Shown here: positions 1,680-54,515 of the stretch, one piece after another
How positions within the stretch are numbered: position 1 is the first letter of the stretch
Layout: every line of letters begins with the position of its first letter
Assembly: GCA_963575745.1 (NCBI GenBank)
Contig: CAUYUJ010000242.1
Location: 1-64,000 of the forward strand
Direction: 5' to 3'
Length of the DNA: 64,000 bases
Source: Prorocentrum cordatum
Lineage: Eukaryota
Translations under genes and position numbers: made by a program
The notes under the pieces: model-generated
The model's input: only the letters and a program-made list of their open reading frames with translations
Databases searched by the model: none
Told to the model about the DNA's origin: nothing

Positions 1680-1680
1680 T

Positions 1681-12100: not shown

Positions 12101-12126
12101 TCAAGAGCGAAGATGGGGTCGAGGGT

Positions 12127-12484: not shown

Positions 12485-12580
12485 GTTATGCTTACGTTTT
12501 GTTTTTACGTGTTGTTTTGATGTGTTGTGTGTACGCGTTGCTTTTACGTGTGTTAAACGCAATGTTACGTGTATTTCGCG

Positions 12581-25780: not shown

Positions 25781-28700
25781 GGTCGGCTCCAGTATCACGG
25801 CCTACGCCAACGTCAGCGCCAGCACCGACGTCCGCGCCAACGCCGACGCCTCCGATGCCGATGCAGGCGCTACCGCCACCGCGACCGCCAACGCCGCGAC
25901 CGGCGCCGACGCTTGCACCACCGCCAACTCCGACACCGGCGCCTGTGCCAGCACGGACGACGAGGTCTGGGACTTAGAGTGGCTCCGGCTCGGCGCTGAC
26001 GCGGGCCCCGCTACCGGCATCGGCGTCAACGCAGACGACGTCAGCGGCGTCACCGCCTACGCCGAAACCAACGCCGCCGCCGACCCCAGCGGCGGCCCCG
26101 ACGACGCCGCGACGGTCGGCGTCAGCAGCGATACCATCGCAGGGATCGGGGCCGACGCCGACGCCGACAGGGACGTCTGCACGGGCACCGGCGCCCGCGC
26201 CGCCGCCAGCGTCGAGGCTGGCCCCAGCGTCAGCGACCGCGTCACCAGCACTACGCTTCCGCACGCGCGCGCTTGGCTCCGCAGGCTCTGTGCCGCTCAC
26301 GCGGGCTTCCCCGCGCGCGCGCGCTGCCCGTTCGGCTTTCTGTCGCGCTTAGCGCGACGCGCGCGTCTCGGGCTCTTCGCGGGCGCGGCTTCGCGCCGGC
26401 GGGCCGGCGCCGCGCGATCGGGGCTCGTTGGTCCCCTGCCTGAGCGAGGCCGTGGGGGCCAGCTCGGGCGCGCGCCGCGCGCTGCCGGCGGGGCTTGCCC
26501 AGCCGGGGTGCCGCAACTGCCCTCGCCGCCACCGCCGTGGGCCGCTCCGCGCCTGCCGAATCGCGAGGACTGCCGCGCGGGCGACTCCACCTCCACCACT
26601 GCTGACGCCAGCGCCGACGTCGACGCCAACGCCGCCGCCTGCTCCGATAGCGACGGCAGCGCCGACGCTGACGCGGGCGCCTACGCCGACGCTGAAACCG
26701 GCACGGAGACCGACACCGACGCCGGCATCGACGTGACCGCCTACACTGGGACCAGCGCCTGCGCTGCCGACGGCGCCCGCGCCCGCGCTGGCACTGGCGC
26801 CCGTGCCCACGCCGGCGCCGCCGCCAGCCCCAGCGCCAGCGACAGCGCCACCGGCGCCGACGTCGCGGTCGCGGGCGTGGTCGCACACCAGGGCACGCAC
26901 CATGGGGTGCACGCTGCTCAGTTCCGCATCTTAGCTGGCGCGCAGTGGAGGTTCGACCCCGCCCGGGTCCAGCCGTGCGAGGTGTCCATCACGGGTGCCC
27001 ATTCTAGGCTCGTCGAAATCGGCCAGGACGCGCAGCCGAAGGCCGACGCCGCCCATGTCCAGCAGGCCGTAGGACCTGGGACGGCTGTTCCGGCCAGGCT
27101 CGACTCCATCGTGCAGGACGTGCCGCGGAAAGCCGACCTTGCAGACTCCGACGCCAGCGCCGGCGCCGACGCCGCCGCGAGAGTCGGCGTCAGCACCGAT
27201 GCCAGCGCAGGGGCTGGGACCAACGCCGACGCCGACAGGGACGTCGGCACGGGCACCGGCGCCCACGCCGTCGCTGGCGCTGACGCTGGCCCCAGCGTCG
27301 GCGACTGCGCTACCGGCTACGCGCTTCCGCACGCACGGGCTTGGCCCCGCAGGCGCCGTGCAGCTCGCGCCGGCGTTCTCGCGTGCGCGCGCTGCCAGTT
27401 CTGCTTTCCGTCGCGGCAAGCGCGGCGCGCGCGTCTCGCGCCCATCGCGGGCGCGGCTTCGCGCCGGCGGGCCGGCGCCGTGCGGTTGGGTCGCGTTTGC
27501 CCCCCGCCTGAGCGAGGCCGTGGGGGCCAGCTCAGGCGCGCGCCGCACGCTGCCGGCAGGGCCTGCCCAGCCGGGGCGTCGCAGTTGCCCTCGCCGCCGC
27601 CGCTGCAGGCCGCTCCGCGCCTGCCGAGCTGCGAGGGCTGCCGCGAGGGCGACTCCGCCTCCGCCACCGCCGACGCCAGCGCCGACGTCGACGGCCCGTG
27701 GAGGGCCGCGGGGACGGACAGGGCCGAGACGGATGTGGAGGCCGACGAGGTTTGGGACATGGACTGGGCCAGGCTCGGCGCCGCGGGCCCCGACGGGGGC
27801 CCCGCTCCCAGCGCCGACGCCGCCACCGTCGTCGACACCGTCGTCACCGCCTGCGCCAACATCAGCGCCTCCTACGACGCCAGCGTCGACGCCCCCACCG
27901 TCCCCGCCTGCACCGACATCGACGCCGGCGACGGCGCCAGCGCCGACGCCTACGCCCGCGCCACCGCTCCCAGCGTCACCGCCGATGTCGGCATCAACGC
28001 CCTCGGGTCCAGGGCTCGCGCGGGCGCCGTCGCCTACTCGGCTGCCAGCGCAGGCGCCAGCCCCGGCGCTATCGCCCACGCCGAGGTCTGGGCCAGCGAG
28101 GTTTGGGCCATGGATTGGTCCAGGCTTGGCACCGGTTTTTCCGTCGTGGGATCCGGCACCGGTGCCGACGCCAGCGTTGAGGTCGGCCCCAGCATCCCGG
28201 CCTGCGCCAACATCAGCACCAGCACCGACACCCGCGCCGAAGCCGGCGCCTCCGATGCCGCTGCAGGCGCTGTCGGCGACGCCGCCTACGCCGAAATCAA
28301 CGCCAGCCCCGATGCCAGCACCGGCGCCGACGCCGCCGCGAGAGCCGGCGTCAGCATCGATACCAACGCGGGGGCTGGGACTAACGCCGGCGCCGACAGA
28401 GATCTCAGCACGGGCATCGGCCGCGCGGCTCGTGCGGGCGTTCTTGCGCGCACGCGCTGCCAGTTCCATTTTCGGTCACGCTTAGCGCGCGACGCGAGTT
28501 TGGCGCCCTTCGCGGGCGCGGCTTCGCGCCGGCGGGCCGGCGCCGCGCGGCTGGGTCGCGTTTGCCCCCTGCCTGAGCGAGGCCGTGGAGGCCAGCTCAG
28601 GCGCGCGCCGCGCGCTGCCGACGGGGCTGGCCCAGCCTGGGCGTCGCAGCGGCCCTCGCTGCCACCGCTGCATGCCGCTCCGCGCCTGCCCAGTTGCGAG

Positions 28701-31700
28701 GGCTGCCGCGAGGGCGACCCCGCCTCCGCCACCGCCGACGTCGACGCCGACGGCGCCGCCTATGCCGACAGCGACGCCAGCGGCGACGCCAGCGCCGACG
28801 CTGACGCAGGCGCCTGCGCCGACGCCGAGACCAGTGCAGAGACCAGCACCGACGCCGACGTCGGCACGACCGTCTACACTGGAACCGGCGCCCGCACCGC
28901 CGACAACGCCCGCGCTGGCACTGGCGTCCGCGCCTCCGCCAGCGCCACCGCCGGCCCCGGCGCCAGCGACGGCGCCCCCGACGCCGACGGCGCGACCGTG
29001 GGCGTAGTCGCACACCGAGGCACGCACCACGAGGCGGGCGTCGCTCGGTTCAGCTTCGTGGCTGCACGTACCGCCCAGCTGGCGTTGGTCATGCCGGCGG
29101 GGCTTAGCCGCGAGGGTACGAGCCTGAGGGGCGACGTTCCAGCGGCTGGGTTACTGGTGGCGGAGGACCTCACCGTTCGCATACCTTCGGGTCACGTGGA
29201 GGATTGCGCGCGCGCCCTGGCGAGGCGTGGAGCCGGGCCCTCTGTCAAGGGCACGCAGGTGCTCGGCAGCGCGTGGGTGCCGACAGGCACGCTGACGCCC
29301 ATCAGCGCACTCGCATTCCGAAGCGCGCCTGGGCTTTGCGGCACGCCGGTATTCGAGAGCGTGCCCCAGCCCAACTTCGAGGGCATGGCCGGGCTCCACG
29401 GCAGACCCCATGGACTGTGTTGTGATTGGATTGGCCGAGGGGCGCCCCCTACCACGTCCTCTTCGGGACCATCGGCGGACCCGAAGGAGGAGGCGTGCCG
29501 GGGTGGCTCAAAAGCGACCCGATGTGCGCCAAGATTCGGCATCGGGAGGCGACGGCGGGCGGGCAGCGGCTGCAGTGGCACCTACAGCGGCGCCTCGACC
29601 CGACGCGCGCCAAGACTCGGCATCGGGAGGCGACGGCGGGCGGGCAGCGGCTGCAATGGCACCTACAGCGGCGCCTACCGCGGCGCCGACGGCCGCGCTG
29701 GCTACGGGCGCGTCGACGGCTTCACCAACAGCGGCGCCGGTCGCATCGACGGCTTCACCGACAGCGGCGGCGACGGCGCCAGTCGCGCCAACCGTGGCAC
29801 TGACGGCTGCGCCGATAACATCACCGACAGTGGGGACGGCCGCGCCGAGGACATCACCGACTGCGGCGCCGCCGGAGCCAACAGCCGCACCGGCCGTTGC
29901 GCCGCCAGCGGCGTCGAGGGCGGCACTGATCGGCGCCCCGACAGCCACGCCCACGGCAGCGCCGACGGCGGCGCCCTTTGCCGTTCCGACAACTGCGGCA
30001 CCGATAGCTTCGCCGACAGCAGCCCCAACAGCCTCGGCAGCGTCGACGGCGGCACTGACTGCCGCTCCGACAGCTGCGGCCCCAACAGCCACTCAGGCGG
30101 CACCGGCTGCCGCTCCGACGGCTGCGGAGTCCATTGCCGCACCGGCCGTTGCGCCGTCAGCGGCGTCGAGGGCGGCACCGATTGGCGCCCCGACCGCGGC
30201 GCCGACAGCACCGCAGGCAGCGGCGCCGACGGTATCACCGAGAGCGGCGCCGACGGCCCCAATAGTCGCTCCGACAGCTGCGTCGTCGGCGGCGTCGGCG
30301 GCAGCACCCGCCGCCGCTCCGACAACGGCGGCCCCGACGGCCCCGCCGGCGGCTGGGCCGGCGGCGGCGCCGACTGCCGCCCCGACGGCTGCGGCACTGA
30401 CAGCCTGGCCGACGGCTGCGCCACTAGCCCTGGCGGCGTCGACGGCAGCGCCTACTGCCGTTCCGGCGGCTGCGGCCCCGACAGCCGCGCTGGCGGCTGC
30501 GCCTCCAGTTGCGTCGGCTGCCACCCCGACTGCGGCGTCGACGGTTTCGCCGACAGCTGCGCTGCCGCCGGCCGCGTCGACGGCCCCGCCGACGGCTGCG
30601 CCGACGGCGGCGCCGACAGCCGCCCCGACCGCGGCGCTTGCGGCCACGCCTGCAGGGGCGCCGGCGGCATCACCGACAGCAGCGCCGAGGGCACCGACAG
30701 CATCGACGACAGCATCGACGACAGCTGCGCCGACGTCCGCACCTGCAGCTTCGCCGGCGGCCCCGCTAACTGCAGCACCGACACCCGCGCCGTCTGCGGC
30801 ATCGTCAGCCCCGCCGACAGCTGCGCCGTCTGCATCATCGACAGCTGCGCCGACACCCGTGCCCACGGCTTCACCGTCAGTGACGCTGTCAGTTACATCA
30901 CCCAGGGCACCGACCCCGCCTCCGAGGACGTGGCGCACGCGTGCGCCCTGGTGCCCGGCATCGCGCCGACGCGGGGCGGGAAGCCCACCGCGGCGGCCCC
31001 GCCCAGCGCGGCGCGACACCCCCCCGTCGGCCTCGACAACGGCGGCGCCAACCGCGGCGTCGGCGGCGGCATCGACCGCGGCACTGGCCTTGCCCTCGAT
31101 GTCTGGGTGAGGACCCCAAGCGTGCCCGGCGTGGTCCCCGAGGCCGTAGCGGCCAGCATCATCGCCAACATCGACGGCGGCGCTGACACCGGTACCCGCT
31201 CTGGCACGCACGTCGACGCGAAGGCCTTGCTCTTCTTGGGCAGGCTGGTGCCTGGTGTGGTCGCGCTCAGGGACATGCACGGACCCTGGAGCGCCCGGGC
31301 GCTCCCCGACGTGCGGGCCCTCTTTTGCACCCGGGCGCTCTCGCTTGACAGCACGCCGGTGTTCATGCGCGCCCCGATGCTCGTGCTCGATGGCCCGTCG
31401 ACGCTGATGTATTGCGACAAGCGCGACTTCTCCTTGGCCAGGTCATCCCCGCCGACGACCGAGTTCACGGGCAAGCGAATGTTCGACTGCCTGCCGGTCG
31501 CAACGCGTCTACACCTACCTGATCACGCGTCCCCTGGCACGCCCAACCTCGGCGGCCGTGGGCCAGCGTGCGTACCTGGCCGAGACGGCTCCGGAGATTT
31601 TGGCCTGGATCGCGGTGGAAAGGGCTCGACTTGGCCCAGTTGCGAGGGGATCAGCTCGAGGAGCGGAACCCCAGCGGCGGGTCTACCCTTGATCCACTGC

Positions 31701-34700
31701 GGGCGGGGGCTCACAGGCGCGCCGGTGCTCAACGGTGCACGCGTGCTTGGTGGCGGGGCTGTGCCCCCCGGCGCGCTGGGACGCAGGGGCGCGCTCGCGT
31801 CCACGCGCGCGCTCCTACTCCTCGGCTCGCCCGAGGTGCAGATCATGCTGGTGCTCGACGGCATGCGGGTGCTCCTGGGCTTACCGGTGTCCCACAGCGC
31901 CTTGGCGTTCCTGGACATGCTGGGCGTGCCCCGCCGTGTGCTGGTACTCCCAGTGCGGTCGTGCTTGAAGGAGGCGTTCTCTGATTGGGTCATCCACGAC
32001 AACCCACCGTCTGCTGCGGGCCCTGGCCCGGCCGGGCCTTTCCGCGGGGGGACCAGCCTTAGGGGCGAGGTTCACGCGGGAGGGGCGTTGCTGGTTGAGG
32101 GCCAGGGCGCCGCTTGGTCAAGCCGCGTGGGGACAAGCCTCAGGGGCGAAGTGCCAGCGGCGACCCTGCCCGGCTTAGTGCGACTTTCGGCCGACAGCCT
32201 CGCCGATAGTGGCGCCAACAGCGGCGCTGGCGGCGGCGTCGACGACGGCGCCGACAGCCCCGCCCACAGCAGCGTCGACAGCATCACCGACGGCCGCATT
32301 GAGGGCCGCACCACCAGTTTCGCCGCGATCTGCGTCAACCGCGGCATCGACTGCCCAGCGAGGCCGACGGCGACCGTAGAGGGTAGCGACTGCCACGTCG
32401 GCGGCTGCGCCTCCAGTGACGTCGGCTGCCGCCCCGACTGCGGCGTCGACAGTTTCGCCGACAGCTGCGCTGCCGCCAGCTGCGCCGACGGCCCCGCCGA
32501 CGGCTGCGCCGACAGCGGCGCCGACAGCCGCCCCGACCGCGGCGCATGCAGCTACACCTGCAGGGGCGCCGACGGCATCACCGACAGCGGCGCCGACGGC
32601 ACCGACAGCCGCTCCGACAACTGCGGCACCGGCAGCAGACCCGCCAGTGGCGACGACTGCCGCGCGTACAGCGGCGCCGACGGCGTTACCGACGGCGACG
32701 GTTGCAACGACAGGTACGCCCACCGCGGGACCGACAGCCTTGCCGAAATCCGCTCCGGCAGCGGCGCCGTCTGCGACAAGACGGGCACCTGGCACAGTCC
32801 GATGGGCGAGCTTTCGGCCTTCATGTTTGCGATGTACGGTCCGATAGGGGAGCAACCGGCCTCCATGGTCACGGCCGCGGCGACGTGCGACGGCCTCACC
32901 GACCACCTCGTCGACAGCCGCACCAGCAGCTGCGCCGACGCTGGCGTCAGCAGCCCCGCCGGCTGCGGCGCGGACAGCCGCGCCAACCGTTGCCCCGACA
33001 GCATCGCCGACAGCTGCGCTGGCGGTATCGCCGACAGCTGCACCGACGCCCGCACCTACAGCTCCGCCGGCGGCTCTGCCAACTGCAGCACCGACACCCG
33101 CGCCGTCTGCAGCACCGGCAGCCTCGCCGACCGCTGCGCCGACTGCGTCGCTGACAGCTGCACCGACACCCGCGCCCACGGCTTCACCGCCAGCACCGCC
33201 AACGGCGGCACCGACGCCTGCGATTGCTGCGGCACCGGCAGCCGCCGCGCCGATAGCGGCGCCGACGGCGGCGTCGATCACGGCACCGATTGCGGCACCG
33301 ACAACCGCGCCGACGGCGTCACTGGCGTCTCCGCCAACCGCGGCATTGGCAGGGCAGCCGTCGTGGACAGCGCCGATGCGAGCGTGAGGCCACTGGCGAT
33401 CGAGCCCGGGCCGGACGCCGAGTGCGAGCTGGTCGGCAGCGGTGACACGGCGTTCGACGTCGCGAAGGCTTGCGGCCTCTCGGTTGGGAACGCTCCGGTG
33501 GAGGGCGGCCTTGTCGCTCACGTTGCGAAGGTGAGGCAGCGGGTCAAGGCCCGGGGTGCCTATGGCACGCGCCCGAGCGACGGGGCTGGCAGCTACAGAC
33601 GCAGCGGCACCAACTGCAGCTACGCCGGCCGCGGCCCCGATAGCTGCGACGACCGTGGCGCTGACCGCCTTGCCTACAGGTACGCCGACGGCTATGCCTG
33701 CGGCGCTGACGGCCGAGCTGACCGCGGCACAGTGGGCAGCCGCGACGACGTCGGCAGTTGCGACGGCATCGGCAGGGACAGTGGCGCAGCCTGCGGCGCG
33801 GACAGCCGCGCCGACTGCGGCGCCGACGGCTGCGCCAACCACGGCGCCGACTGTCGCGCCGACCGCGAGCCCTACGAGGGCACCAGCGGGCTGATCGAAT
33901 GGCCCGCCGACAGGCTCACCGGCTGCGGCACCGACAGCGGCGCCAATGGCTGCAGCCACGCTGTCTGCGGCACCGGCGGCCGCGCCGACGGCTACCTCGA
34001 CAGCCACGCCGACGACAGCCCCGTCAGTTACGCCGACAATGGCACCGACTGCTGCACCGACCTCGGCGCTGACCGCGGCGCCGACGGCGGCGCCCACGAG
34101 GCAACCCGCAAGGGCGTGCCCGTGGGGGGCGTCTCGGGCGGCGGGCGCGGCCGCGCCGACCGCGGCACCTACGGTGGCACTGACGGCCACCCCGCCAGCG
34201 GCGTTAACCGCTGCGCTGGCTGCGGCACCGACCGCCGCGCAGACTGCGGCACCAGCAGGCGCGCCGACAGCATCCTCGACGGGGGCGCCGACAGCGGCCC
34301 CTACTGCAGCGCTGATTTCGGTACCGGCCGCGGCGCCGACAGCGGCGCTGGCGCGGTGAACTTGAAGGGCGCGCTCGTGGAGGGCTCCTCGGATGACTGG
34401 CACGTTCTGGACAGCGGCCCAAAGGCTGCCGAGGAGATCGAGGCTGCGCTGGCGGGTCATAAGACGGCTGGTACGCCGACGGCTGCATCGACGGCCTCGC
34501 TGACAGCTGCGCCGACCACGGCACCGACAGCTGCAATGACAGATGCGCCGACCGCTGTACCAGCCGAGGCGCCAACGGCGGCACCGACAGCGGCGCTGGC
34601 GTCTGCGCCGGCGGCCTCCAGGCAGCCCAGACCTCACGGGCGGTGCACGCCAGAGGCAGCTGCCGCCGCGGCCCCGGGGGGCGCCACCGTACTCGCACCG

Positions 34701-35090
34701 GCCGGGGGCGCACGGCTCGCACCAGCCTCAGGGGCGGGCGTTGGCCCACCCATGTGCGACGGACGGCGCGCGCCAGCGGCGGCTGCGGCCGCGGCCCCGA
34801 GGGATGCCCGCCCGTCCTCGCCCGCCAGGGGCGCCCGGCGCGCACCAGCCTCCGGGTCAGCAGCGGTCCCGCCCATGTGGGACGGGCGTCTCGCGCCAGA
34901 GGCGGTGGCTACCGCGGCCCCGGGGGATGCGGCACTGACAGCCACGGCGACCTCGGCGACAACGGGGACATCGACTAGCTTACGGCTTCGCCGATTGCTG
35001 CACCAACGGCAGCGCCGATGGGTCGTCCGTCTGTTGCCCTGGCCGCGGCACAGACAACCGCCTGGACAGCGTCGACGACGGTTGCACTAG
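25248..35090 (+). CDS. 3280-codon low-complexity ORF (A/D/G/C-rich repeats), probably a frameshifted continuation of the 23024 ORF
   Basis: No stop for 9.8 kb. It shares the EVWxxxWxRLG motif with the upstream ORF and is built from GCCGAC-rich internal duplications. Coding status is uncertain. Confidence 0.35.
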   Translation: MTWTGPGSAPRAPKRAPFPALTPPPSSTPPSPPAPSSAPTPTPTLTSTPIHGLAPGPPPATLAPTPPMSPPPPPTTPATTPARAPTPRPPPSPTPATAPPAPTPMRTLPLPRPPAQAPAPTLPTSPPTPASAASAGASTDAIALTRSEAGEVWAVRWSRPGARSSDVGLGTRTDASVEVGSSITAYANVSASTDVRANADASDADAGATATATANAATGADACTTANSDTGACASTDDEVWDLEWLRLGADAGPATGIGVNADDVSGVTAYAETNAAADPSGGPDDAATVGVSSDTIAGIGADADADRDVCTGTGARAAASVEAGPSVSDRVTSTTLPHARAWLRRLCAAHAGFPARARCPFGFLSRLARRARLGLFAGAASRRRAGAARSGLVGPLPERGRGGQLGRAPRAAGGACPAGVPQLPSPPPPWAAPRLPNREDCRAGDSTSTTADASADVDANAAACSDSDGSADADAGAYADAETGTETDTDAGIDVTAYTGTSACAADGARARAGTGARAHAGAAASPSASDSATGADVAVAGVVAHQGTHHGVHAAQFRILAGAQWRFDPARVQPCEVSITGAHSRLVEIGQDAQPKADAAHVQQAVGPGTAVPARLDSIVQDVPRKADLADSDASAGADAAARVGVSTDASAGAGTNADADRDVGTGTGAHAVAGADAGPSVGDCATGYALPHARAWPRRRRAARAGVLACARCQFCFPSRQARRARLAPIAGAASRRRAGAVRLGRVCPPPERGRGGQLRRAPHAAGRACPAGASQLPSPPPLQAAPRLPSCEGCREGDSASATADASADVDGPWRAAGTDRAETDVEADEVWDMDWARLGAAGPDGGPAPSADAATVVDTVVTACANISASYDASVDAPTVPACTDIDAGDGASADAYARATAPSVTADVGINALGSRARAGAVAYSAASAGASPGAIAHAEVWASEVWAMDWSRLGTGFSVVGSGTGADASVEVGPSIPACANISTSTDTRAEAGASDAAAGAVGDAAYAEINASPDASTGADAAARAGVSIDTNAGAGTNAGADRDLSTGIGRAARAGVLARTRCQFHFRSRLARDASLAPFAGAASRRRAGAARLGRVCPLPERGRGGQLRRAPRAADGAGPAWASQRPSLPPLHAAPRLPSCEGCREGDPASATADVDADGAAYADSDASGDASADADAGACADAETSAETSTDADVGTTVYTGTGARTADNARAGTGVRASASATAGPGASDGAPDADGATVGVVAHRGTHHEAGVARFSFVAARTAQLALVMPAGLSREGTSLRGDVPAAGLLVAEDLTVRIPSGHVEDCARALARRGAGPSVKGTQVLGSAWVPTGTLTPISALAFRSAPGLCGTPVFESVPQPNFEGMAGLHGRPHGLCCDWIGRGAPPTTSSSGPSADPKEEACRGGSKATRCAPRFGIGRRRRAGSGCSGTYSGASTRRAPRLGIGRRRRAGSGCNGTYSGAYRGADGRAGYGRVDGFTNSGAGRIDGFTDSGGDGASRANRGTDGCADNITDSGDGRAEDITDCGAAGANSRTGRCAASGVEGGTDRRPDSHAHGSADGGALCRSDNCGTDSFADSSPNSLGSVDGGTDCRSDSCGPNSHSGGTGCRSDGCGVHCRTGRCAVSGVEGGTDWRPDRGADSTAGSGADGITESGADGPNSRSDSCVVGGVGGSTRRRSDNGGPDGPAGGWAGGGADCRPDGCGTDSLADGCATSPGGVDGSAYCRSGGCGPDSRAGGCASSCVGCHPDCGVDGFADSCAAAGRVDGPADGCADGGADSRPDRGACGHACRGAGGITDSSAEGTDSIDDSIDDSCADVRTCSFAGGPANCSTDTRAVCGIVSPADSCAVCIIDSCADTRAHGFTVSDAVSYITQGTDPASEDVAHACALVPGIAPTRGGKPTAAAPPSAARHPPVGLDNGGANRGVGGGIDRGTGLALDVWVRTPSVPGVVPEAVAASIIANIDGGADTGTRSGTHVDAKALLFLGRLVPGVVALRDMHGPWSARALPDVRALFCTRALSLDSTPVFMRAPMLVLDGPSTLMYCDKRDFSLARSSPPTTEFTGKRMFDCLPVATRLHLPDHASPGTPNLGGRGPACVPGRDGSGDFGLDRGGKGSTWPSCEGISSRSGTPAAGLPLIHCGRGLTGAPVLNGARVLGGGAVPPGALGRRGALASTRALLLLGSPEVQIMLVLDGMRVLLGLPVSHSALAFLDMLGVPRRVLVLPVRSCLKEAFSDWVIHDNPPSAAGPGPAGPFRGGTSLRGEVHAGGALLVEGQGAAWSSRVGTSLRGEVPAATLPGLVRLSADSLADSGANSGAGGGVDDGADSPAHSSVDSITDGRIEGRTTSFAAICVNRGIDCPARPTATVEGSDCHVGGCASSDVGCRPDCGVDSFADSCAAASCADGPADGCADSGADSRPDRGACSYTCRGADGITDSGADGTDSRSDNCGTGSRPASGDDCRAYSGADGVTDGDGCNDRYAHRGTDSLAEIRSGSGAVCDKTGTWHSPMGELSAFMFAMYGPIGEQPASMVTAAATCDGLTDHLVDSRTSSCADAGVSSPAGCGADSRANRCPDSIADSCAGGIADSCTDARTYSSAGGSANCSTDTRAVCSTGSLADRCADCVADSCTDTRAHGFTASTANGGTDACDCCGTGSRRADSGADGGVDHGTDCGTDNRADGVTGVSANRGIGRAAVVDSADASVRPLAIEPGPDAECELVGSGDTAFDVAKACGLSVGNAPVEGGLVAHVAKVRQRVKARGAYGTRPSDGAGSYRRSGTNCSYAGRGPDSCDDRGADRLAYRYADGYACGADGRADRGTVGSRDDVGSCDGIGRDSGAACGADSRADCGADGCANHGADCRADREPYEGTSGLIEWPADRLTGCGTDSGANGCSHAVCGTGGRADGYLDSHADDSPVSYADNGTDCCTDLGADRGADGGAHEATRKGVPVGGVSGGGRGRADRGTYGGTDGHPASGVNRCAGCGTDRRADCGTSRRADSILDGGADSGPYCSADFGTGRGADSGAGAVNLKGALVEGSSDDWHVLDSGPKAAEEIEAALAGHKTAGTPTAASTASLTAAPTTAPTAAMTDAPTAVPAEAPTAAPTAALASAPAASRQPRPHGRCTPEAAAAAAPGGATVLAPAGGARLAPASGAGVGPPMCDGRRAPAAAAAAAPRDARPSSPARGARRAPASGSAAVPPMWDGRLAPEAVATAAPGDAALTATATSATTGTSTSLRLRRLLHQRQRRWVVRLLPWPRHRQPPGQRRRRLH

Positions 35091-44649: not shown

Positions 44650-47390
44650 GATCGACGTTTTGGCTACGTGGAAGGAGACGAGAACTGCGATGACCAAAGA
44701 GAAGCTGCAGCGAGGATGACCGACCCGTGATGCGTCGAGTTTCAAGAAGTTGAAGTATCGGGTGCGATGCTGTCTGCGTGAGGTCATGGGCCCCGTCAGT
44801 CGCGACTGCCCGAAGCGAACAAAGCCCCCATGCAATGGCCCGAAGAAGTTCGTGACGAAGCCGTACCAGCAGGGACAGAATGGTTCGACAGGAAGCGGCG
44901 TTCCCAGTGTTGACCACGCAGTCCATGATCGAGGACGACGAGATCTGGTCCGAGGCGGACGCGCTAACCTCATCGCGAAGCTGACGAACGAGGAGGTTCA
45001 GGAGGCTGGCTCACGACTGACGCACAGGAGAACAAGACGTCGTCGCGGGCGAGATCGATGAGGCAGAGGACGAAGAGAATACCGTCGAGGCGTGTGCGTG
45101 TCACGCGCTGGGCTGCGGTGCTCTCGACTCGGGCTGTGGCGCGGCGCCGATTGGATCGGAGACGTTGTCAGAGTATGAGAAGGTGGCAGGCCTGCAGCCA
45201 TAGCGGGAGGAGGGCGCGCTGACGGTCAGGTGCAAAAGCTACGACGGCAAGATTCGTCGAGGACAGAAGGCATGCTGGATCCAAGGGCCTATTCCGAGGG
45301 CGAAGAAGCGGGTGAAGATCCTGGTCTACATGATCGAGGGCATGGTTGGGTTGCTGATCAGCAAGCAGGCGATGAAGATGCTCCAGGCCAATCTGGACAT
45401 GAGCGAGAACCGCCTGTGGCTTGGGCGGCTGCAAGTGTCGCTCCCCGCACGAGAAGCCGAGGTTCGTGGACACTGCGAGGTGGACTTGCTGGGGCGCGAG
45501 TTCGAGCAGAGTCCGGATCCCGACGCGGCGGTGGACGACGCGAGGGTGAGGATCGAGGACATGGAGCAGTCTTTTCAGCAGGGCAGGGCCGGCGCCCTCA
45601 GGCCAGGGATGGCGGGGACTGCCAGGCTCTCAGCGCGATGGACCAGCTGCCGGGCGCGATGGGGATCTTTTCGCCGCCGAGGGTGTGTCCGTTGGCGCCG
45701 CAGTGCGGCATGCGCGACCTCGGCGGGTTCGACAGCGTCGCAGGCTGGGGCGCTCGCGCGCACGCTGACATGTAGGAACTGTGGAAACATCAAGACGGAG
45801 GACCCCTTCCGTGCCATCATGGGCCCCCCGTGCGATAAGCTGACGGCCCTTCACAATATGACCCCGGATGAGAAAAGAAAAGATCTGGAACGACACTTCC
45901 GGGAACTTTTGGAAGCTAAACGTAATTTCGGGGCGCGCGTTCAGATAGCCGAACACTGGCTGTCTCGGGGCAGGCATTTCATCCTTGAGGCGCCTCCGAC
46001 GGCGGCTACCTACAGCGCGTGGTCCAGGCAGCGACTGTTGGAAGACAGAGGGCCCACGTGGGCGTGGCGAGTGGTGGGTGCAGCGTGGGCCTCAGACACC
46101 CCATCTCAGGAGTCCCCCTGAGCAAGCGCTGGAAGTTTGCGTCATCGTCGCTTGGGGTGGCAAGCGAGCTTCCACTTCCGTGCCAGGGCGGTCATGCCCA
46201 CGTGCGGACTGAGGGTGGTAGACCACTACCAGGCATCGGTATCTTGCTTCCCCGCTGGACCCAAATCTGCCCGGCGAAGCTTGTCAGGAGGATGCCCCAG
46301 GGGCTCTCGACGGCCAGCGTGGTTCATGATGGGGGAAAGGAGGTGGAGGGGTGCGCCGTTGACGAGGACGAAGGGGGCGGCCATGAGGTGCGCCCCCAGC
46401 GTCCGCGGAGTTTTGGGGCTGCGCTACGACGGCCCCATGTGAATCTAATCCATGCGACGACGGCCGCGATGCAACGACACCTCCGACATGCGAATGCAAG
46501 CCCCGAAGCGATACGACAGGCGACGAATTTCCATTGCGACGATTGCGAATCTGAACGACAGCCAGGCAGTGCGAAGTACAGTGCCCCTCCTGTGGCGATG
46601 GTCGCGAGAGAGCTTCCAGACCACCTTCCAGGGGGGCGGCGGGCATCTCTCAACATTGCGTGCGATGCCCTGTCTCTGCGCGTGATGGCTCCACTCCGGC
46701 GTGGAGAGGCGGAGTCGTCCATCGCGCTGCTTCGCGCCTATTGGAGCAAGTGGGCCCGGCCATGCACGAGGCCAAAGTGGCTGAAGGTGGGCGCTGCGAG
46801 TGCACATGTGTTGGGCGAGCTTCAGGATGCGACGCGCGGGGGCGGGGCGATTTTGGCGGGCGCAGCGGGGATGACAAAATAACAGGGTGGAAGGGTGAAG
46901 GTGCACGGGAAGTGGCTTGAACAGCGGTTGGAGGTTACGATCGACGAGGTTCAGCCCCAGGGCGAGGACCAGGAGGAATGGCTTGAATGCGTCGCGGAGC
47001 TCCAGGAAGAAAAGAATACATTGCTGAGCGTGAACCGAGTTTCCCCGCGTCAGATTGCGGTCGGCAGAAATCCAGAGATTCCCGAGGATTTGTTCGGGAT
47101 TGCCCGAATCCCGCGGCAAACAGTTGTGCGCGGCGCGACTCAGTGGCGGCGCGGGCCGCCAGTGTCCGCGCCATGGCTCGTCGGGTGGTTTTGGCGCACA
47201 ATGAGAAGAAGGCTACTAGGGTTGCTTTCGACTGTCGTCGGAGAGCGCGCCGAGTTTCTCAGTCAGGCGACGCGGTCGCAGTGCGGCGCTGGAGGGGGCG
47301 ATTGCAGGCAAACAGTTTTCGCGCAGATGACGACCAGGCATCGATCTGTGCGGGGCCTGTCAAGGGGAACATCTGGGTTGCTTCTGGCGC
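44650..47390 (+). pseudogene. Decayed Copia element 2: Gag knuckle, protease, DNMT domain, integrase
   Basis: RCCLREVMGPVSRDC; LDSGCG at 45123; GLLISKQAMKML; IFSPPRV, MGPPC (45819), HFILEAP, CQGGHAH; HVNLIH..CDDC; GPVKGNIWV. Many frameshifts; no LTRs seen. Confidence 0.8.
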
Positions 47391-47419
47391 CGCCCCTTGC
47401 CGAGCCTGCAGCCCTCGTG

Positions 47420-48950
47420 GCTCTTTCTGGCGGCCGCCGCTGCGGTTTCCCCAGCCCCAGCCCGAGTTTGCCGCCGCTGCGTTTTCCGGTCCTTTGTGTC
47501 CCTTGTGGTGGCCCTTCTGGTCGCCCTCCTTGCCCTTCCAGGCGCCCTTGGGGTGCCCTTTCTTTCTCTGAAGCCTCCTCGCCGCCGCCTCTGGCGACCT
47601 GCGCGGCGCGTTCTGCGTGGGCACCACCAGGGGAAAGTGCGTTTTTCCTTTTCGTTTTCCTCTGGGGCCACCCTGCCAGATTGTTGGATCCATTGTTTTT
47701 TGCTTTGCTTTGAAGGGGTGCGGGGTCCATCCCCCCCAGTTTCCTGTTGCCTTGCGTTTATCCATCTGTGCCTCGTAGGCGCGGACTGCGATCGACGATG
47801 CAGCAGCTGGCGTCAGCAATGATTCCATCTTCTATTGCGGGGCCATCTTCTTGGGGAGGCACGTCTCCTGCATTTTTCCAGGCCCGTGCGCGATGCCGAA
47901 CGTGGGAGGATTCTTGTTCGGCCCTTCATCGTTCAAGAGCCCGCCACTGCGGCCGTGTAAGATTTCCAAACCTTTGCAGAGCGTGTACTTCCCAGGGCAG
48001 TCGAAGAACATCACCGCCATGCTGTCCGCCCAGGGTCGGCCTCGGCCGGTCTCCCAGGGGGCCCGCGCGGCCGCGTCGACCACCGGGCCAGCCATGCGGG
48101 CCCTGCGGACAATGCCGAACATGCACAGGTTGAGGTCCCCCATGGCGACTCGCACGCGACTGCGTTGGACCTCCTGGAAGAACCAGGCGTAGAACTGTTC
48201 CAGCCTCTGTGTCCCAAAGTCATTGTTGGCCAACTCGTCGTGCACGCGCAACGCCGCGACGTTGAATCTGTTGCCCGGGCGCGGCACTGGGTCGCCCAGG
48301 GTAGCCTGTGACCAGGGCCCTGGAGTACCCGTTGAGTTCGTTCTCTGTTTTTGCATGCGTGCCTCGTCCTTTCTCTTGAACCGCGCGAACCCGAGGCTCT
48401 CTATGCTGCCGCCACTGCGTTCTCGCACGCCGAGGAGAAGAGTGCCATTCGGTTCATCGCCTTTGACGCGCAAGTACTTGTACCGGGATGGGACTGAAAC
48501 GTCTCCGCCTCCGCCTTGGCGGCGCCCGCTGCTGCGGTCTCGCGCGCACCCCCCCCCGTCGTCGTCGTTTTCTTCGGCGGCCCCAGACAGCAGGTGGAAC
48601 AGCTCGTCGTCGCCTGATCTGTGACTCTTTGCTGGTTGGCAATGCTCAGCCGCGCCGTTTTCTCCGCCCGCGTCGGTTTCAACCGCGAACGTGTTTTCTT
48701 CGTCGCGTCCGCCACTGCGTTTTCCGCGCCCGCCCCTTCGGCCCCCTGTGTTCTGTCTTTCTTCTTCGGCCGCGTCGTCCCTGCGCGAAGAGGCCGCCGC
48801 CGCAGAACCAGCCAAAGTGTCACCGTCTTGCGCGGCACCTCCGTCGTCGTTGTCGTCGTCGTCGTCATCCGAGTGTGCGACCGCCCCCGCGTTCCCCCGA
48901 GCGTTTGCCGCGACTGCGGCGTCATGCTCGTTCTGTAGCATTCTGTCCAT
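47420..48950 (-). pseudogene. Endonuclease/exonuclease/phosphatase (EEP)-like ORF, frameshifted at ~47830
   Basis: TLLLGVR, NVAALRVH, VRVAMGDLN (GDxN), then KTHFPLVV (DHxP-like) in the next frame. Confidence 0.45.
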
Positions 48951-49419
48951 CGGGCTTTCCTCGCCAGTAGTGGCCCCGCTCGCAGCTGGGCGGGAGGGCG
49001 ACCAGATGGCCGCGGCCATCACCTCCCGCATGGCGGCGGCCGAACCACCTCGAGCCGCCAACAACCATCGCACGGGGAGTGGACGAGGAGAAAGAGGTCG
49101 GATTGGAGCACGAGGTCGAGGGGCAGGGCGATGCGGGGGGAAGGCAGCGTGGAGCGCGGAGGAAGGGGGAGGATCATAATGACGTTGATGGCGATGCTGA
49201 TGATGATGTTGATGTGGGCGATGATGCTGATGATGATGGCGCTGACGAAGATGTGGAGGAGGATGCGTGTTTTTGTCCACCTGGCTGCGACGCTCACGCG
49301 CCAACTCGCCGCCACCCCGCTGCTGCGGTCTCCTGCGTCGCGGCGCCGCCAATTACGCTGCGGCCCCGCTTCCACCGCCACTGCGGTCTGGAACGGCGCC
49401 GGCAGGGACCGCCGGCGCC

Positions 49420-51900
49420 ACCTGCCCCCTAACGTTCTCCTCGCCGTCTCGTTGCGCATAAACTGCGACAGCGCGGCGCGATTCCCAGCTGCGGCCTCGC
49501 GGGCGACCTGTTGCATCCACGCAGCAAAAAGATTATGCCAGTCCTCCTTGTGTTCCTTGCTCATCGCGTCGTCCCAGTTCGTTTTGAACCACTACCACTC
49601 CGACCTCTGCGCCTGTGAAAGGACGTCCTTGCCGCGAGCCAGGCGATCCAACGCCGCCATCCTGTGTTTCCTGATGTTCAACCCCTTCTGGCTTCCACTG
49701 GGCCATGGCGAACTTGCTCGACAGCGCGTCTTCCGCCGCGATTGCGGCCTCATTATTCGCCTTCCAGGTCGCGCAGCGCCAAGGTTCTGTCGTTCGCTCC
49801 CTTCGTCAATCGCCGCTTCTTTGCGCCGCTGCAGCTTTGTGATCTAGCTGCGCAGTCAAGGCTCGCAGGAGATTGCCGTCGTCGCGAGAACTCTCGCTGG
49901 CGTTTCTGTTCATCTTGCGCGCCTCGCTTCTACAATGCATTGCAGGGCTCTGCATACCCACTTCCCGTAACATTGTTTCGGTCTCTTTGAGTGTTTCCTG
50001 CATGGGCACCGCCGCTGCCGCGTGCTCGGCCGCGCCTGCGTCGACTGCGACCTCCACGGCGTCCACCGCGGGTGCGGCGGGCGAGTTCGCATCCGCTGCT
50101 GCGGTTTCAGCGTCTGCCGCAACAGCCTCCTCCCACCCCTGCTCCTCGTCCGCGTCGTCGGCGCCGTTCCCCATCGCCATCGCCCTCGTCCGTCCCCCCC
50201 TCCGCGCCATCCTCCTCCTCGTCTTCATCCTCTTTCGTCGTCTTTCCTTCTTCCTCGCCCAGATTGGCGAGGACTTTGTCTGACTCACTGTGCGTTGCGC
50301 AGAGAAGTGTGGGGCGTTGTCTGCCGTTGTGCGACCGCTTGAGCCTGCTCTCGGAAACCCGCCTCTGTCCACAGCGCCGCCGCCTCCCTGCAGATCTCCA
50401 GGTCGCCTGGCTTGTCGAGCGGCGCCCTGATGCCCGTCTGCAGGAAGCCGTCTGCGGCGTTCAAGTGGAGCTGCAAGTTATTCAGCACCTCGACCATAAA
50501 GTCCACGCAGTCCCCCCGCTTCAAGTGCGGAGCCTTTTTGTTGTCATGTGTCATTTGCCGGATCAGCCTGGCGACTTCGCGAGCGATGTATTCGCGCTTG
50601 ACGCGTTGGTTGAGGTCCGTGCCCACGGGCTGCGCTACTGCGGTTGTCCCGCCACCATGAATGATGAGGACGTAGCCGTGCTGCCGCGCGAGTCTCCTGA
50701 CCGCATCTGAGTCGCGGGGGCCGTGTGCGTCGGCCATGAGGATTCGCCGCGGCCCCCGCGCTTTCGCGTCGTCCGGCCACTCGCGCAAGCGCCGCTTCGG
50801 GAATGCGACGACGCGCTCGTGGCGATACCTCCCCTCTTCGGAAGTCGTCGTGGACACCCAGGGAGGGTGCTCGTTACTGGGAGCGCGCGCTGCGAGATTC
50901 CTCGCAATCTCGGGCCCCCCCTTGAAGATCAGCTCCGCAGGCGGCGGCCCGCGACTGCGGATCTCCTCTTTGTCGCTGGACACCGTGAGGTTCGCCGTCA
51001 ACTTGGCTTTGCCGCGGCCGCGCGCTTCGACCAGCGGGGCGACGCCCCCCTTCGCGGAGAGGCGCGGCTTCTCAGCAGAGCCCGCCTCGTTGCGGTGGAA
51101 AGGGGACGGGGGCTGGCCCCAGTTGAGGACGCGCTGGCCGTGCCCAAGAAGGGCGTCCGCGGCGGCGCGCGCCCTGGGCACGTTCAAAATCATCGCGTCG
51201 AAACTGGACCGCAGAAGCCATTTCGGCATCTTACACTTGCGGTTCAGCTTTCGCATGCTCAGACCGTGCGCGCGCCGCCGCTTCGCCCGCCACCTTGGCC
51301 GCAACTGCGGTGCCGAAGGTCTGAGTCCGGGCCCCTGCTTCAATGCTTCCACGCAATGTTGCGCTGCGAGTTGCCGCGCTTTCGCGACCAGCAGGGCTTG
51401 GGTGAATATTGCCATGATCTTCGGGCGCTCCTGCGCGACTGCGCTCCTCTTCGCGACGGCTTTCTAGTCCACAGAATACCTCATGTGCGACCACCAGTCG
51501 TACAGAGAAACTTCCAACCATGCGCACTTCGCATGACGACCAGCGCCATCTGCGCGACGTCTGCTTTTTGAGTATCCGCTTTCGAAGGGTGCGGCACCAC
51601 CCCCTGCATGTTTTTCCAGCGCCACCACCACTTTGTCACGGCTGATGCCTGCGTTCTCTCGTTCATGCTTGTCAGCCATTTGCGTTGCTGACAAAAGCCG
51701 ACCACAATGCCCCGCGTCAGCCGCCCGCAGACCCAACCGCGACTGCGGGCGTACTCCTGGAGCCCCCTGCACACCGCGTTGCGATCTGCGAGCAGCCAGG
51801 CGCGCGCTGGCTTCTTCATTTTCGTGACTGCGACGACGGGTTGTTGCTTGAAGGCCTCGTGCGGCCTGATTTGCTCTTCCCGCGTCGGCTCGGGCATGCC
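49420..51900 (-). pseudogene. pogo-like DDE transposase with a CENP-B-type HTH and a C-terminal extension
   Basis: LEVSLYDWW (HTH-like); VLNWGQ (NxDQ position); RILMADAH; IHGGGTTAVAQPVGTDLNQRVK (QPxD position). Two catalytic Asp positions read Gly, and stops are present. Confidence 0.7.
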
Positions 51901-52649
51901 ACCTGCGATTGCCAGCAAAGCACCGTCATCGCGCAAACCCGTCTGCCACCGGAAGGCCTGGAGAAGCTCGGGCCTGGCCGAAAGCGGAGGCTGCGCGACC
52001 ACCTGCTGGTCCACAACGTGCGTTCTCGCCCCGCCCTCGTCGTCGTCGCCGTCGTCGTCGGAACGCGCTGCGGTATCCATCCGCGGAGCTTTCGCCGCAG
52101 GTGCACTCTCTTGCGGCGGCGCTGGAGGCGCGGGGGCTCGCATCCGCATTGGCGCCGCGGTCGGCGCCGCCACTGAGGCCGCTGCATCTGGGTCGGGGCG
52201 CGGAAAGAACTGCGCGGCACTCTCGGACCACGTCGCTGGCAACGGGAGCGCTGGCAGCATGCGCCCTACAGATGCTGCAACCCCGCTCGCTTCTACTCCC
52301 GCGGCGACCTCAACCGCACCTGCGGCGTCATCTCCAGGCGGTGGAGTTCCTGATGCCGCTCCCCCTTCTGCGCTCTCTGGCGCGGCTGCGCCCTCTGGCG
52401 CTGCAGTCGCGTCTGCGGCGCCCTCTCCCGCCGCTGCGGCCACTGGGACTTCGGATTTGAAGGGGGAGGGGGAGGAGGATGGGCGGGGGTGGGGAGGGAG
52501 ACGATGGGGGCGAGGAGGGCGAGGAGGAGGACGAGGGCCTCCGAGCGGGAGCTGGGGGAGATGGAGGAGGAGGAGGACGACGACGAAGTCCTGATGAGGA
52601 CGCGTCGCCTTCGGCGGCTGGGGCCGCCACTCCTTCCCCTGCCCCTGGA

Positions 52650-53828
52650 TCCGACGGCGCCGCTGGCGGGCGCCAGTCGAACGCTCCATGCCTCCCTTCG
52701 CCCCGCTGTGCAACGCAGTCGTCTTGCGCGCACGCGTGCGCCTTGATGTTCTCAGGGCGCATATCCCCGCTACTGCGGTTCCAGATGTTTACGAAACGTG
52801 GCGCCGTAGCGGGTCTCTCTCGGCTTTCCACCGCTAGGATACTTCAACCATTCCACTTCGCAATGGATGGCATCCTTGCATTTGCCATGCCATCGCGTGC
52901 CAACTGGCGCGCCCACGGGAAACCCGATCGCCGCGCGCTGCTGCTTGAGCCTCGAACGCGGCCGCGGGGAGGGGGGCTGCTTACCGAGAAGGGGCGCTGA
53001 ACATGCTGGACGAATGAAGACACGCAACGATAAGTAATGCATCGGAAGGGGGGGGGACGCGAGGAGCACGCGATCGCGGGGAATGTATTTTTCTGACAAA
53101 TGCCCATCTCCCCGACGAGTGATTGCCCCCCACGGCGCGCCCCGACGCGCGCGCTCACGCGGCGACCTCGCGGTCTGCGGTCCGCCATTTGCAGCCTGCG
53201 GTCCGCCGTTGCAGCCCGCGGCCCGCCACTGCGGCGGTCTGCCGCGGGTCCGCCACTGCGGTTCCCCCGTGGCTTAGCCGATGATCTGCGGCACCTTCAT
53301 TTCCAGGTGCTCCTGCGGCGCCTGCTTCTTCTGGGCGGGCGTGATGTTCTCGCAGTTGTAATCGTACCTTTCCGCTTCGGCGATGTCCTTCCATTTCGTC
53401 TTCGTCAACTTCTTGCATTCCAGTTCGATGGCATTCCCTTTGCGCTTGCCCTCGCGCGTGACCGCTGCGGCCCACGTGCCCTTGAAACCCCAAGCAATCG
53501 CGAAGCCGACGCCGCCCCCCTCGGCCGCGCGCTCCTCGGGCGGACGGTCCGCCAGGTCAATGTGGATGACGCCAGGGTCTCCACTGCCCACTGGATCCGA
53601 CGCTGACCGCGACGGCGCGGCTGCGCTTTCGTCGCGGTCAGCGTCGGCGAGACGCGGAACGCCGCCGACGCCCGCGTCATCCCACATCATCTGGAACAAC
53701 CAATTCACGCCCAGAGCATCCAGGCCGAACATTCGTCGCTCGAACTTTGCCGCGCGCGCAGAACGCATCTCTGCGTTGGTTGGGCACGTCAGAACACTCT
53801 TGGCGCGCGCCCTTAGGGTCAACGCCAA
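52650..53828 (-). pseudogene. Fragmented unknown ORF upstream of the transposase
   Basis: Protein-like stretches (FERRMFGLDALGVNWLFQMMWDD; FAIAWGFKGTW; PRFVNIWNRS) in several frames. Confidence 0.3.
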
Positions 53829-54261
53829 CGGCGCTACAATATCATCCGGCGGTCGCCGGCACCCCCTTCCCCCCCCCGCCCTGCCGGCGCGGTGCTTTGC
53901 CTCTTGCGGGGGGCCTCGGGGGGGGGGGTCCGCGCCGCCGCCCAGACTCGTCGCGGGGTCGTCGCCCTCCTCTTCCTCCAGGGCGATTCCCCCGCCGCCT
54001 GCAGCTATCTATGCCGCTGTCAGGAGCTCGCGTGCGCGGCGCCCCTTCAATTGGCCCTTCTTTGCAACCTGGCGCGGGGGGCGCGCCCTCATAATCCAGT
54101 CCTTCGCCGAGGTCACGTGCGCAAGCGCCGCTGCCCAGAGGTCCTTGGGAACCACGAAATGGTTCCGGACATTTTCGCTCTTCAAAAAGAACGAATTTTG
54201 GTTCCGGATCGATGCTGTTACACAAAATGGCTCCGGAGATATATTCTGGTTCCGGAAAATG

Positions 54262-54515
54262 ATTATATATATATGTATAGGCATATATATGTATGTAAAT
54301 ATATATACACATACATATATATATATTGTGGATGCAAAAATACGTCTGAACATATGAACATATATGTATTCATGTGATTACGTATATACACATGTATAAT
54401 TTCACATGCACATATATGTGTGTATGTATACATATGCACATACGTACGTATGCAAGTACTTATTTTTGCATATATACATATTACATATACATGTGTATGA
54501 GCGTATATGTGTGTA
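54262..54515. repeat. Degenerate (TA)n/(TACA)n microsatellite
   Basis: Alternating purine-pyrimidine AT-rich tract. Confidence 0.9.

Follow-up and report, generated by a model that had tools for sequence, protein, structure and literature searches.

Sense-strand stem-loops arrayed through the genes of a decayed, putatively pogo-like transposon of Prorocentrum cordatum and its metagenomic relatives

DNA transposons are thought to be recognized via duplex sites at their ends, and their best known dispersed motifs, such as the 12-bp TnpA motif of En/Spm and the AAACGG motif of Ac, are subterminal transposase-binding repeats that are read as duplex DNA, occur in both orientations and occupy a few hundred bases at each end. 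Short signals that act from one strand are familiar from other systems. The lambda boxB with N and the HIV TAR with Tat are nascent-RNA hairpins that are read by element-encoded regulators and are present in one or two copies near the 5' end; bacteria possess strand-biased words, namely, Chi, KOPS, DNA uptake sequences and the RfaH ops, the latter being a 12-nt hairpin of the non-template strand; and MS2 and STNV are among the viruses with dispersed packaging stem-loops. Such dispersed packaging signals of single-stranded RNA viruses are the subject of published accounts (PMC6475782, PMC8206606 and PMC12377776). Here, we analyze a 64,000-nucleotide stretch of the genome of Prorocentrum cordatum (GenBank assembly GCA_963575745.1, contig CAUYUJ010000242.1, positions 1 to 64,000 of the forward strand; this whole stretch is hereafter the window), in which the genes of an apparent DNA transposon, now decayed, are threaded by a 12-nucleotide motif in a single orientation.

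The window contains 17 exact matches to CCGCNRCTGCGG on both strands together, compared with 0.46 expected from 100 dinucleotide-preserving shuffles of the window (maximum 3), and with up to one mismatch allowed, 49 matches compared with 11.5 expected. Fourteen of the 17 lie within 47434-53261, all on the + strand, with none on the opposite strand of that segment; the other three are in mixed orientation, at 1851 (+), 2089 (-) and 10150 (-). The density is thus 14 copies in 5.8 kb inside the element vs 3 in 58 kb outside, and within the window, the 12-mer is confined to one element. An earlier reading made from the letters alone (hereafter, the sequence-only reading) had reported an element-wide array of 13 exact and five one-mismatch copies (48409, 48709, 49736, 50632 and 52167) in one orientation, too many for chance; each of these points is upheld, and all of the copies are recovered, along with an exact copy at 47434 that had been missed and four further one-mismatch copies on the + strand (47471, 50009, 50066 and 52314). 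The same reading had named, as the observation that would tell against it, an equal, two-way frequency of the motif in unrelated GC-rich coding DNA; within the window, this is not what is found, given that the 58 kb outside the element include open reading frames (ORFs) of 60-77% GC as well as retroelement genes (RVT_2 at 7662-9878) and hold only the three copies. The strand had been misread: the element is coded on the minus strand, and therefore, the sense form of the motif is the reverse complement, CCGCAGYNGCGG. Regular spacing of the 12-mer is rejected because the gaps between copies range from 27 to 856 bp. Like the bacterial oriented words, the motif is short, oriented, spread through coding sequence in all frames and under selection, but those are genome-wide host signals, whereas this one is confined to a single family of eukaryotic mobile elements, is about ten times denser and varies between lineages; a genome-wide oriented word is also rejected by the contrast between the 14 copies in the 5.8-kb element and the three, of mixed orientation, in the rest of the window.

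The one-way array is a property of the family. In 80 metagenome loci that encode relatives, collected with a broad alignment (406,316 bp, each locus oriented with the transposase on the + strand), the motif occurs 496 times in the sense and 11 times in the antisense orientation. In the reduced set of 55 clusters with one representative each (301,831 bp), CCGC-RGTN-GCGG occurs 488 times in sense and four times in antisense, and under a generalized definition of the motif, 36 of the 55 clusters have five or more sense sites that outnumber the antisense sites at least fourfold. No relatives were detected in viral contigs, and a metagenome scan with a narrower, 4-sequence alignment likewise returned none. 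Intact relatives carry 10-60 stem-loops each, in all ORFs and in all three phases, and the sites extend over entire contigs on either side of the transposase, often clustering just after stop codons, in spacers and near the ends of the transcribed part; in one locus (L065), the hairpin itself is tandemly repeated with a 15-nt period (6471-7236). The loops are lineage-specific (AGTC, AGTT, AGTG, GGTG, GGTA and AGCA) and nearly uniform within an element, the lineage versions being CCGCAGTCGCGG, CCGCAGTTGCGG, CCGCAGTGGCGG (the window type), CCGCGGTGGCGG, CCGCGGTAGCGG and CCGCAGCAGCGG; the window copy is decayed, and its hairpins have mixed loops. Some relatives additionally harbor repeats of other kinds, all in one orientation as in L065: in L033, a different hairpin (TTCGAC, a 10-nt loop, GTCGAA) recurs every 40 nt in non-coding sequence (598-998), and L023 (56-604), L018 (29-195) and L051 (2944-3380) contain non-coding tandem arrays of unrelated units.

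The motif is selected at the nucleotide level. Synonymous-codon shuffles of 31 long ORFs preserve only about a tenth of the sites, with approximately 90% removed; in L049, for example, 15 sites are observed, whereas 200 shuffles gave 1.5 on average and never more than 6. The sites of these 31 ORFs occur in each of the three reading phases (23, 235 and 74 sites), and the encoded peptides are 5- to 25-fold enriched over composition-matched shuffles in 152 family proteins (xAVAx, 205 vs 8.2 expected; RSxG, 68 vs 6.9; PQxR, 24 vs 4.9). The sequence-only reading had argued for a nucleic-acid-level signal on the ground that the motif was read in three frames within a single transposase ORF. The signal is confirmed by the shuffles and the phases; the argument itself stands in part, in that three frames are indeed used within 50285-51463 on the minus strand (APQLRP at 51299, IRSRG at 50949 and TTAVAQ at 50632), but the supposed single ORF is a frameshifted pseudogene in at least four frame pieces, with no intact ORF, and is one of three genes, the motif running through the other two and the spacers as well. 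The sites are conserved in place. The elements of L049 and L064, which are 68% identical overall, share 14 sites out of 19 and 16, respectively, with an identity of 0.90 in the motif columns and 0.67 outside. More generally, in pairs of elements that are 63-88% identical, from a third to nearly all of the sites occupy the same aligned position, and conservation is higher in the motif columns than elsewhere in 13 of 14 pairs (the exception, L036 vs L076, shows 0.867 vs 0.881); sites are also gained and lost between elements.

What is conserved in the motif is the pairing together with the loop, [A/G]-G-Y-N. The motif consists of a 4-bp stem, usually CCGC/GCGG, and an RGYN tetraloop, and among the loci, perfect hairpins with a 4-bp stem and a 4-nt loop are strongly biased to the sense orientation for each of four loops (sense/antisense: AGTC, 271/7; GGTG, 189/5; AGTT, 125/5; AGTG, 89/3). 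Doubly compensated stems in the 55 clusters are found exclusively in sense (CCAC..GTGG, 11; CCGT..ACGG, 11; CCAT..ATGG, 17; TCGC..GCGA, 5; CTGC..GCAG, 3; antisense 0 for each), and in L036, L076, L032, L033 and L010, the stems CCGC, CCAT, CCGT, CCAC and CCTT (CCTT/AAGG) are mixed within one element that keeps one loop type (GGTG or GGTA). Words of the form CCNN-RGTN-NNGG occur 624 times in sense and 29 times in antisense; when the inner bases are non-canonical (136 sense words), complete pairing is seen in 77, more than in any of 1000 re-pairings (mean 49.4, maximum 66). Single stem changes in the 55 clusters leave a G.U pair in 84 cases vs A.C in 21, and the same preference holds for matched CpG transitions (17 vs 1 for pair 3-10; 14 vs 4 for pair 2-11). 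The compensatory changes and the tolerance of G.U bear out the earlier suggestion that the CCGC-N4-GCGG quasi-palindrome is a tetraloop hairpin, and the hairpin is present in the predicted fold in three of four window contexts, with a 3-bp version in the fourth. It is not a known Rfam family, as no covariance model matched at the hairpins; the only Rfam hits, below threshold, were those of miRNA models (mir-297 and mir-466) to the microsatellite at 54260-54500, which are low-complexity artefacts. Substrates of Rnt1p-type RNase III have an AGNN tetraloop on a double-stranded stem of approximately 14-16 bp, and although the loops here fit [A/G]GYN, this possibility is rejected given that the conserved stem is 4 bp long and the consensus flanks provide no further pairing; splice or trans-splice sites are without support. 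Taken together, these results establish a genuine motif that is present across the family on the sense strand only, differs between lineages, forms base pairs and is under selection at the nucleotide level.

The 84 to 21 excess of G.U over A.C fits RNA better than duplex DNA and points to RNA as the paired molecule. A selected one-way array with loops that switch between lineages implies that something reads it specifically and that its function matters enough to hold three genes under constraint. The explanation that we tentatively favor, at slightly less than an even chance, is that the 12-mers are cis-acting stem-loops on the sense transcript that are bound multivalently by one specific, probably element-encoded protein. 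The stem-loops would then serve as multivalent sites for a single protein that recognizes both sequence and shape; that this protein is encoded by the element is suggested by the loops being lineage-specific and uniform within an element, and the two candidates are the upstream protein, which may contain an AP2-like domain, and the N-terminal portion of the transposase. Once bound, the RNA of the element, either nascent or mature, would be labeled as 'self', a label that could hold the element proteins at the copy that made them or, alternatively, could protect and express a long intronless RNA.

Among described systems, the closest in presumed mode of action are the packaging stem-loops dispersed in the genomes of RNA viruses and the hairpins of the boxB/TAR type. 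The virus signals, too, are numerous short sense-strand stem-loops that run through coding sequence with a shared loop and variable stems, and covarying stems are found here as well; they act together through multivalent protein binding, and the same action is what we propose for the element. The element differs in having the appearance of a DNA transposon, with a DDD transposase, and in its far more uniform stems; no capsid, coat or polymerase gene was recognized in the element ORFs or in 16 accessory ORFs of relatives, with the upstream ORF showing no clear fold match. The likeness to boxB and TAR is that of a small sense-strand hairpin with a specific loop, which in those cases is read by a protein of the same element, whereas here 10-60 copies extend across coding sequence and no homologous protein or matching regulator was found.

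A bolder proposition, which we consider doubtful, is that large pogo-like transposons with three genes form a widespread, hitherto undescribed group in aquatic protists and possess a lineage-specific 'hairpin code', consisting of dozens of identical RNA tetraloop stem-loops within their own coding sequence that an element-encoded protein would read to recognize the nascent or mature RNA of the element. If true, this would be RNA-mediated self-recognition in a eukaryotic DNA transposon, allowing preference for the protein-encoding copy and discrimination against related families; to our knowledge, no eukaryotic transposase can favor the copy from which it was made. Full-text searches, within the portion of the literature that they reach, returned no description of the 12-mer, its variants or the element. 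What calls for an explanation in any case is that a family keeps 10-60 one-way stem-loops in its own coding sequence, at a cost in codons and amino acids, with loops that switch between lineages. An element-encoded reader would add a new layer of self-recognition in mobile DNA and provide natural, compact, orthogonal pairs of RNA tag and binder; a host reader would reveal a pathway of expression or surveillance that handles long intronless RNAs in protists that have received little study; and either way, the 12-mer is a simple marker with which these elements can be found and classified in metagenomes.

Several observations weigh against an RNA array read by the element's own protein. No known RNA-binding domain was recognized in the three element proteins, the similarity to AP2 being weak (Z 5.0). 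The loci of the relatives come from metagenome contigs, and copies related by descent inflate the raw counts, although the main counts were redone with one representative per cluster. The canonical signature is missing from 19 of the 55 clusters; one lineage (L054, L073 and L077) carries instead the related tCAGCTGTNGCGa, in which pairing needs a bulge; and L013 has three copies (240, 1692 and 2660) that are opposite to its transposase gene. The folding z-scores of four window copies are -0.55 to -1.64, with energies that are unremarkable in a GC-rich context. Finally, G.T wobble is also the least harmful mismatch in single-stranded DNA, so that the 84 to 21 ratio is compatible with a DNA hairpin.

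The hairpin could be an RNA signal that is read by a host factor, for instance, an adaptor that helps long intronless transcripts to be exported, to remain stable or to escape silencing, and in that case, the loops would track the host species. A paired, sense-only signal at the nucleotide level fits such an adaptor equally well, the ORFs of the relatives are uninterrupted on their contigs, and the failure to recognize an RNA-binding domain in the element proteins speaks for it. We nevertheless regard a host reader as unlikely, considering that loops vary among lineages and hardly at all inside an element, and that the motif is absent from the neighboring retroelement ORFs of the same genome in the window, where a general host signal might be expected to occur as in other intronless mobile genes.

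Orientation bias and compensatory stems would fit any single strand, and hence the hairpin might form in DNA, on the sense (non-template or displaced) strand during transcription or replication, and be read, for example, as a strand-specific nicking or loading site of the EEP-fold protein or by the transposase. The best fold matches of the EEP-fold protein include the retrotransposon nickases TRAS1 (Z 9.6), L1 EN (8.8) and R1Bm (8.4), but RNA deadenylases are matched about equally (CNOT6L, 9.5; Nocturnin, 9.2; PDE12, 9.2). A DNA hairpin of 4 bp is marginal, the preference for G.T over A.C (84 to 21) is better accounted for by RNA, and dozens of nick sites inside the element's own genes would have no obvious use; we rate this reading as somewhat less likely again than a host reader.

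Distinctly improbable, in our assessment, is that the 12-mers are duplex binding sites for a DNA-binding protein of the element, either the helix-turn-helix (HTH) part of the transposase or the AP2-like product of the upstream gene, that is, subterminal repeats extended over the element as a coating or a head-to-tail filament. As with known subterminal repeats, a short element-specific motif is present in many copies with clusters toward the element ends; sites cluster near the array ends and in spacers, the HTH_Tnp_Tc5 and AP2-like domains have weak support, and lineage variants would fit co-evolution with a DNA-binding domain. Duplex binding, however, gives no reason for a one-way orientation of approximately 100 to 1, antisense readings encoding equally tolerable peptides; a dimer that reads half-sites should not accept five stems with one loop in a single element; and the asymmetry between G.U and A.C is meaningless in duplex DNA. 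Subterminal transposase-binding repeats as such are rejected because the sites span the whole element including all ORFs, are one-way (496 sense vs 11 antisense) and show base-pair covariation. The sequence-only reading had suggested transposase coating, anti-silencing or RNA packaging as functions, and of these, a double-stranded coating site fits the data worst. That the array is a functionless by-product is highly improbable: tandem unit arrays do exist (L065, 6471-7236, with the 15-nt period, and window 53160-53261) and the unit is a multiple of three bases that is stop-free in all frames, so that it might have spread by micro-conversion from terminal tandem arrays, but excision footprints would appear in both orientations, in-frame 12-bp insertions are contradicted by alignments in which the sites occupy conserved positions with no 4-residue indels, a protein-level AAVAA repeat would neither enrich the other two phases nor depend on synonymous codons, and the sites evolve slower than their flanks (0.90 vs 0.67).

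The element appears to be a decayed copy of a large DNA transposon with three co-directional genes, namely, an upstream gene, a pogo-like DDD transposase and an EEP-fold nuclease. The transposase is a frameshifted pseudogene on the minus strand (49361-51999), with homology to positions ~447-1188 of the 1201 positions of the family profile. The best piece spans 50333-51427 (E = 7.5e-116) and the further pieces are in other frames; the N-terminal ~440 profile positions were not detected in the window copy, in which the 5' part of the gene up to ~53040 is unrecognizable. The frame at 50285-51463 (-) has three close relatives (E from 1.5e-101 to 1.8e-48), and a profile built from these three retrieved 1277 cluster representatives at E up to 0.001 from a library of 1.84 billion proteins. 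Full-length relatives are ~1400 amino acids long; their N-terminal part is long and their C-terminal region is coiled. In 34 family proteins, an acidic triad is apparent, with D960 and D996 invariant and separated by 36 residues, and D837 at least 90% conserved. The window copy has PVGTD in place of PVDTD and MADAH in place of MADDH of the relatives; the position of the third catalytic Asp being Gly, this copy is evidently dead.

Among the 34 members, DDE_1 is matched in six, all below threshold (best E = 0.0036; 16.9 bits in P0057 compared with the cut-off of 22), HTH_Tnp_Tc5 in five, also below threshold (best E = 0.00046; cut-off 22.2), and HTH_psq in one, again sub-threshold; the window ORFs gave no Pfam match to any of the three. 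These sub-threshold matches, together with the acidic triad and its 36-residue spacing, suggest a distant pogo-like DDD transposase, albeit not a member by the Pfam cut-offs. The likeness is to the pogo/Tigger/Tc5 branch of Tc1-mariner, from which the element differs by the size of its proteins (~1400 amino acids), the two extra co-directional genes, one of them with an EEP fold, and the lack of Pfam matches at the cut-off. More broadly, Pfam searches with the window ORFs and the 16 accessory ORFs of relatives gave nothing at the thresholds used, and PDB profile searches with the transposase and the downstream ORF found nothing. Five full-length relatives (P0007, P0013, P0019, P0057 and P0076) share an N-terminal block rich in C and H and a DGDCGxD motif, the latter lying in the N-terminal halves and, as we take it, resembling the catalytic motif of OTU-type cysteine proteases, a lead only; no Pfam match to OTU was obtained in the 34 members at E up to 0.1.

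Upstream of the transposase lies a 244-amino-acid open frame (53274-54008, -), here denoted ORF-up, with relatives that tblastn places just upstream of the transposase in L034, L050 and L022; clustering of the + strand ORFs of the related loci yields an upstream family of 15 ORFs that are always just upstream of, and co-directional with, the transposase. ORF-up has no Pfam match and no clear relatives as a protein, and a Foldseek search with it gave no match at E up to 0.001. The best structural matches of its C-terminal domain are a Plasmodium AP2 domain (Z 5.0, root-mean-square deviation 3.2 over 59 residues) and mitoribosomal proteins, which fall below the noise level of the tool (Z 7-8), so that the domain is possibly AP2-like. 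Downstream, a 506-amino-acid open frame (ORF-down; 47832-49352, -) has relatives by tblastn downstream of the transposase in L041, L056 and L032, and the corresponding family from the same clustering consists of 13 co-directional ORFs. Its conserved motifs are LQE, GDFNM, DSC and GAHxPL. The 37 best fold matches are almost all EEP enzymes by title (Z 9.8 to 6.2), among them retrotransposon endonucleases (TRAS1, Z 9.6; L1 EN, 8.8; R1Bm, 8.4) and RNA deadenylases of the CCR4 type (CNOT6L, Z 9.5; Nocturnin, 9.2; PDE12, 9.2). The model on which these matches rest has an overall pLDDT of 48.8, with only the core reaching 65-93, and sequence support is weak (PF03372 in 1 of 10 members, E = 0.07); the predicted fold together with the N/E/D/H motifs nevertheless assigns the putative nuclease/phosphatase to the EEP superfamily.

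The hairpin copies of the element, all with the minus strand as sense, are placed as follows. A cluster of hairpin units in the spacer that separates the transposase gene from the ORF-up stop (53160-53261) comprises two exact copies, both CCGC-AGTG-GCGG (53250-53261 and 53223-53234), and degenerate units with longer loops, and includes a tandem repeat with a period of 20 (53175-53228). Further along come CCGC-AGTA-GCGG (52767-52778), CCGC-AGCG-GCGG (52428-52439), CCGC-AGTC-GCGG (51737-51748), CCGC-AGTT-GCGG (51299-51310, reading PQLR), CCGC-AGTC-GCGG (50949-50960, reading RSRG) and CCGC-AGCA-GCGG (50093-50104). Two exact copies mark the junction of the transposase and ORF-down, CCGC-AGTG-GCGG (49375-49386) and CCGC-AGCA-GCGG (49317-49328); three are in ORF-down, CCGC-AGTC-GCGG (48908-48919), CCGC-AGCA-GCGG (48526-48537) and CCGC-AGTG-GCGG (47941-47952, reading RSGG); and CCGC-AGCG-GCGG (47434-47445) is downstream of ORF-down, 37 bp from a one-mismatch copy at 47471-47482. 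The other one-mismatch copies include those at 48409-48420, 48709-48720, 49736-49747, 52167-52178, 52314-52325 and 50632-50643, the last of which reads TAVA inside the conserved block GGGTTxVAQPVD.

Sequencing contigs provide a glimpse of other copies. The locus is covered by contigs of one low-coverage DNA run, and over the transposase core (50576-51511), contigs of run X1 are 10-20% diverged with a depth of 27 to 430, which indicates that the family is multi-copy in that organism. Among the differences listed for these paralogue contigs, the changes inside the 12-mers at 50949 and 50632 affect only the variable loop base, so that at 50949 the stem is kept, and the immediate flanks have four and three changes, respectively; these are single contigs, and the comparison is anecdotal. 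A (GAT/CAT)n-like microsatellite inside the element (49190-49250) has a very high contig depth in three sequencing runs (27,337 in X1), which is due to cross-matching of simple repeats rather than to the copy number of the element.

As for the ends of the element, the window and 11 of 12 long loci yielded no convincing pair of terminal inverted repeats, and no target site duplication is readable. In the 13-kb relative L054, palindromic units CCACAAAGTTTTT..AAAAACTTTGTGG are found at both ends (1-210 and 12950-13030), outside the hairpin array (820-12783), and are candidate transposition ends; this layout, seen in one locus only, fits an array that would mark the transcribed part, with other sequences serving as the ends for transposition. 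In the window, just beyond ORF-up, four clustered copies of TGGTTCCGGA (54160-54256, strand not assigned) may belong to the 5' subterminal region of the element, a weak call as these four are all of the window matches and their number is no higher than expected by chance (4.4). An AT-rich TA/CA microsatellite (54260-54500) borders the element.

The rest of the window includes other repetitive and mobile sequences. A Copia-like retroelement (913-1533, 1754-11197 and 11564-12100) consists of a 2092-amino-acid frame followed by an RVT_2 frame and a zinc-knuckle frame, and lies between similar arrays of AACAACACGTACA-type repeats; it serves as the control within the window, where it accounts for only the three out-of-element exact copies (1851, 2089 and 10150), in mixed orientation. 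A 3298-amino-acid open frame at 25194-35090, with ~75% GC, is largely made up of 12-, 24- and 120-bp repeat units (CCGACAGCTGCG-like), and the long frames next to it have no Pfam match. Frames on the + strand at 45989-47400, which adjoin the 3' end of the element, gave no Pfam match at E up to 0.1 and by eye resemble the integrase of a retroelement, with an H..H..C..C finger and a GD.V.V motif; if they do encode an integrase, the element lies in or beside another mobile element.

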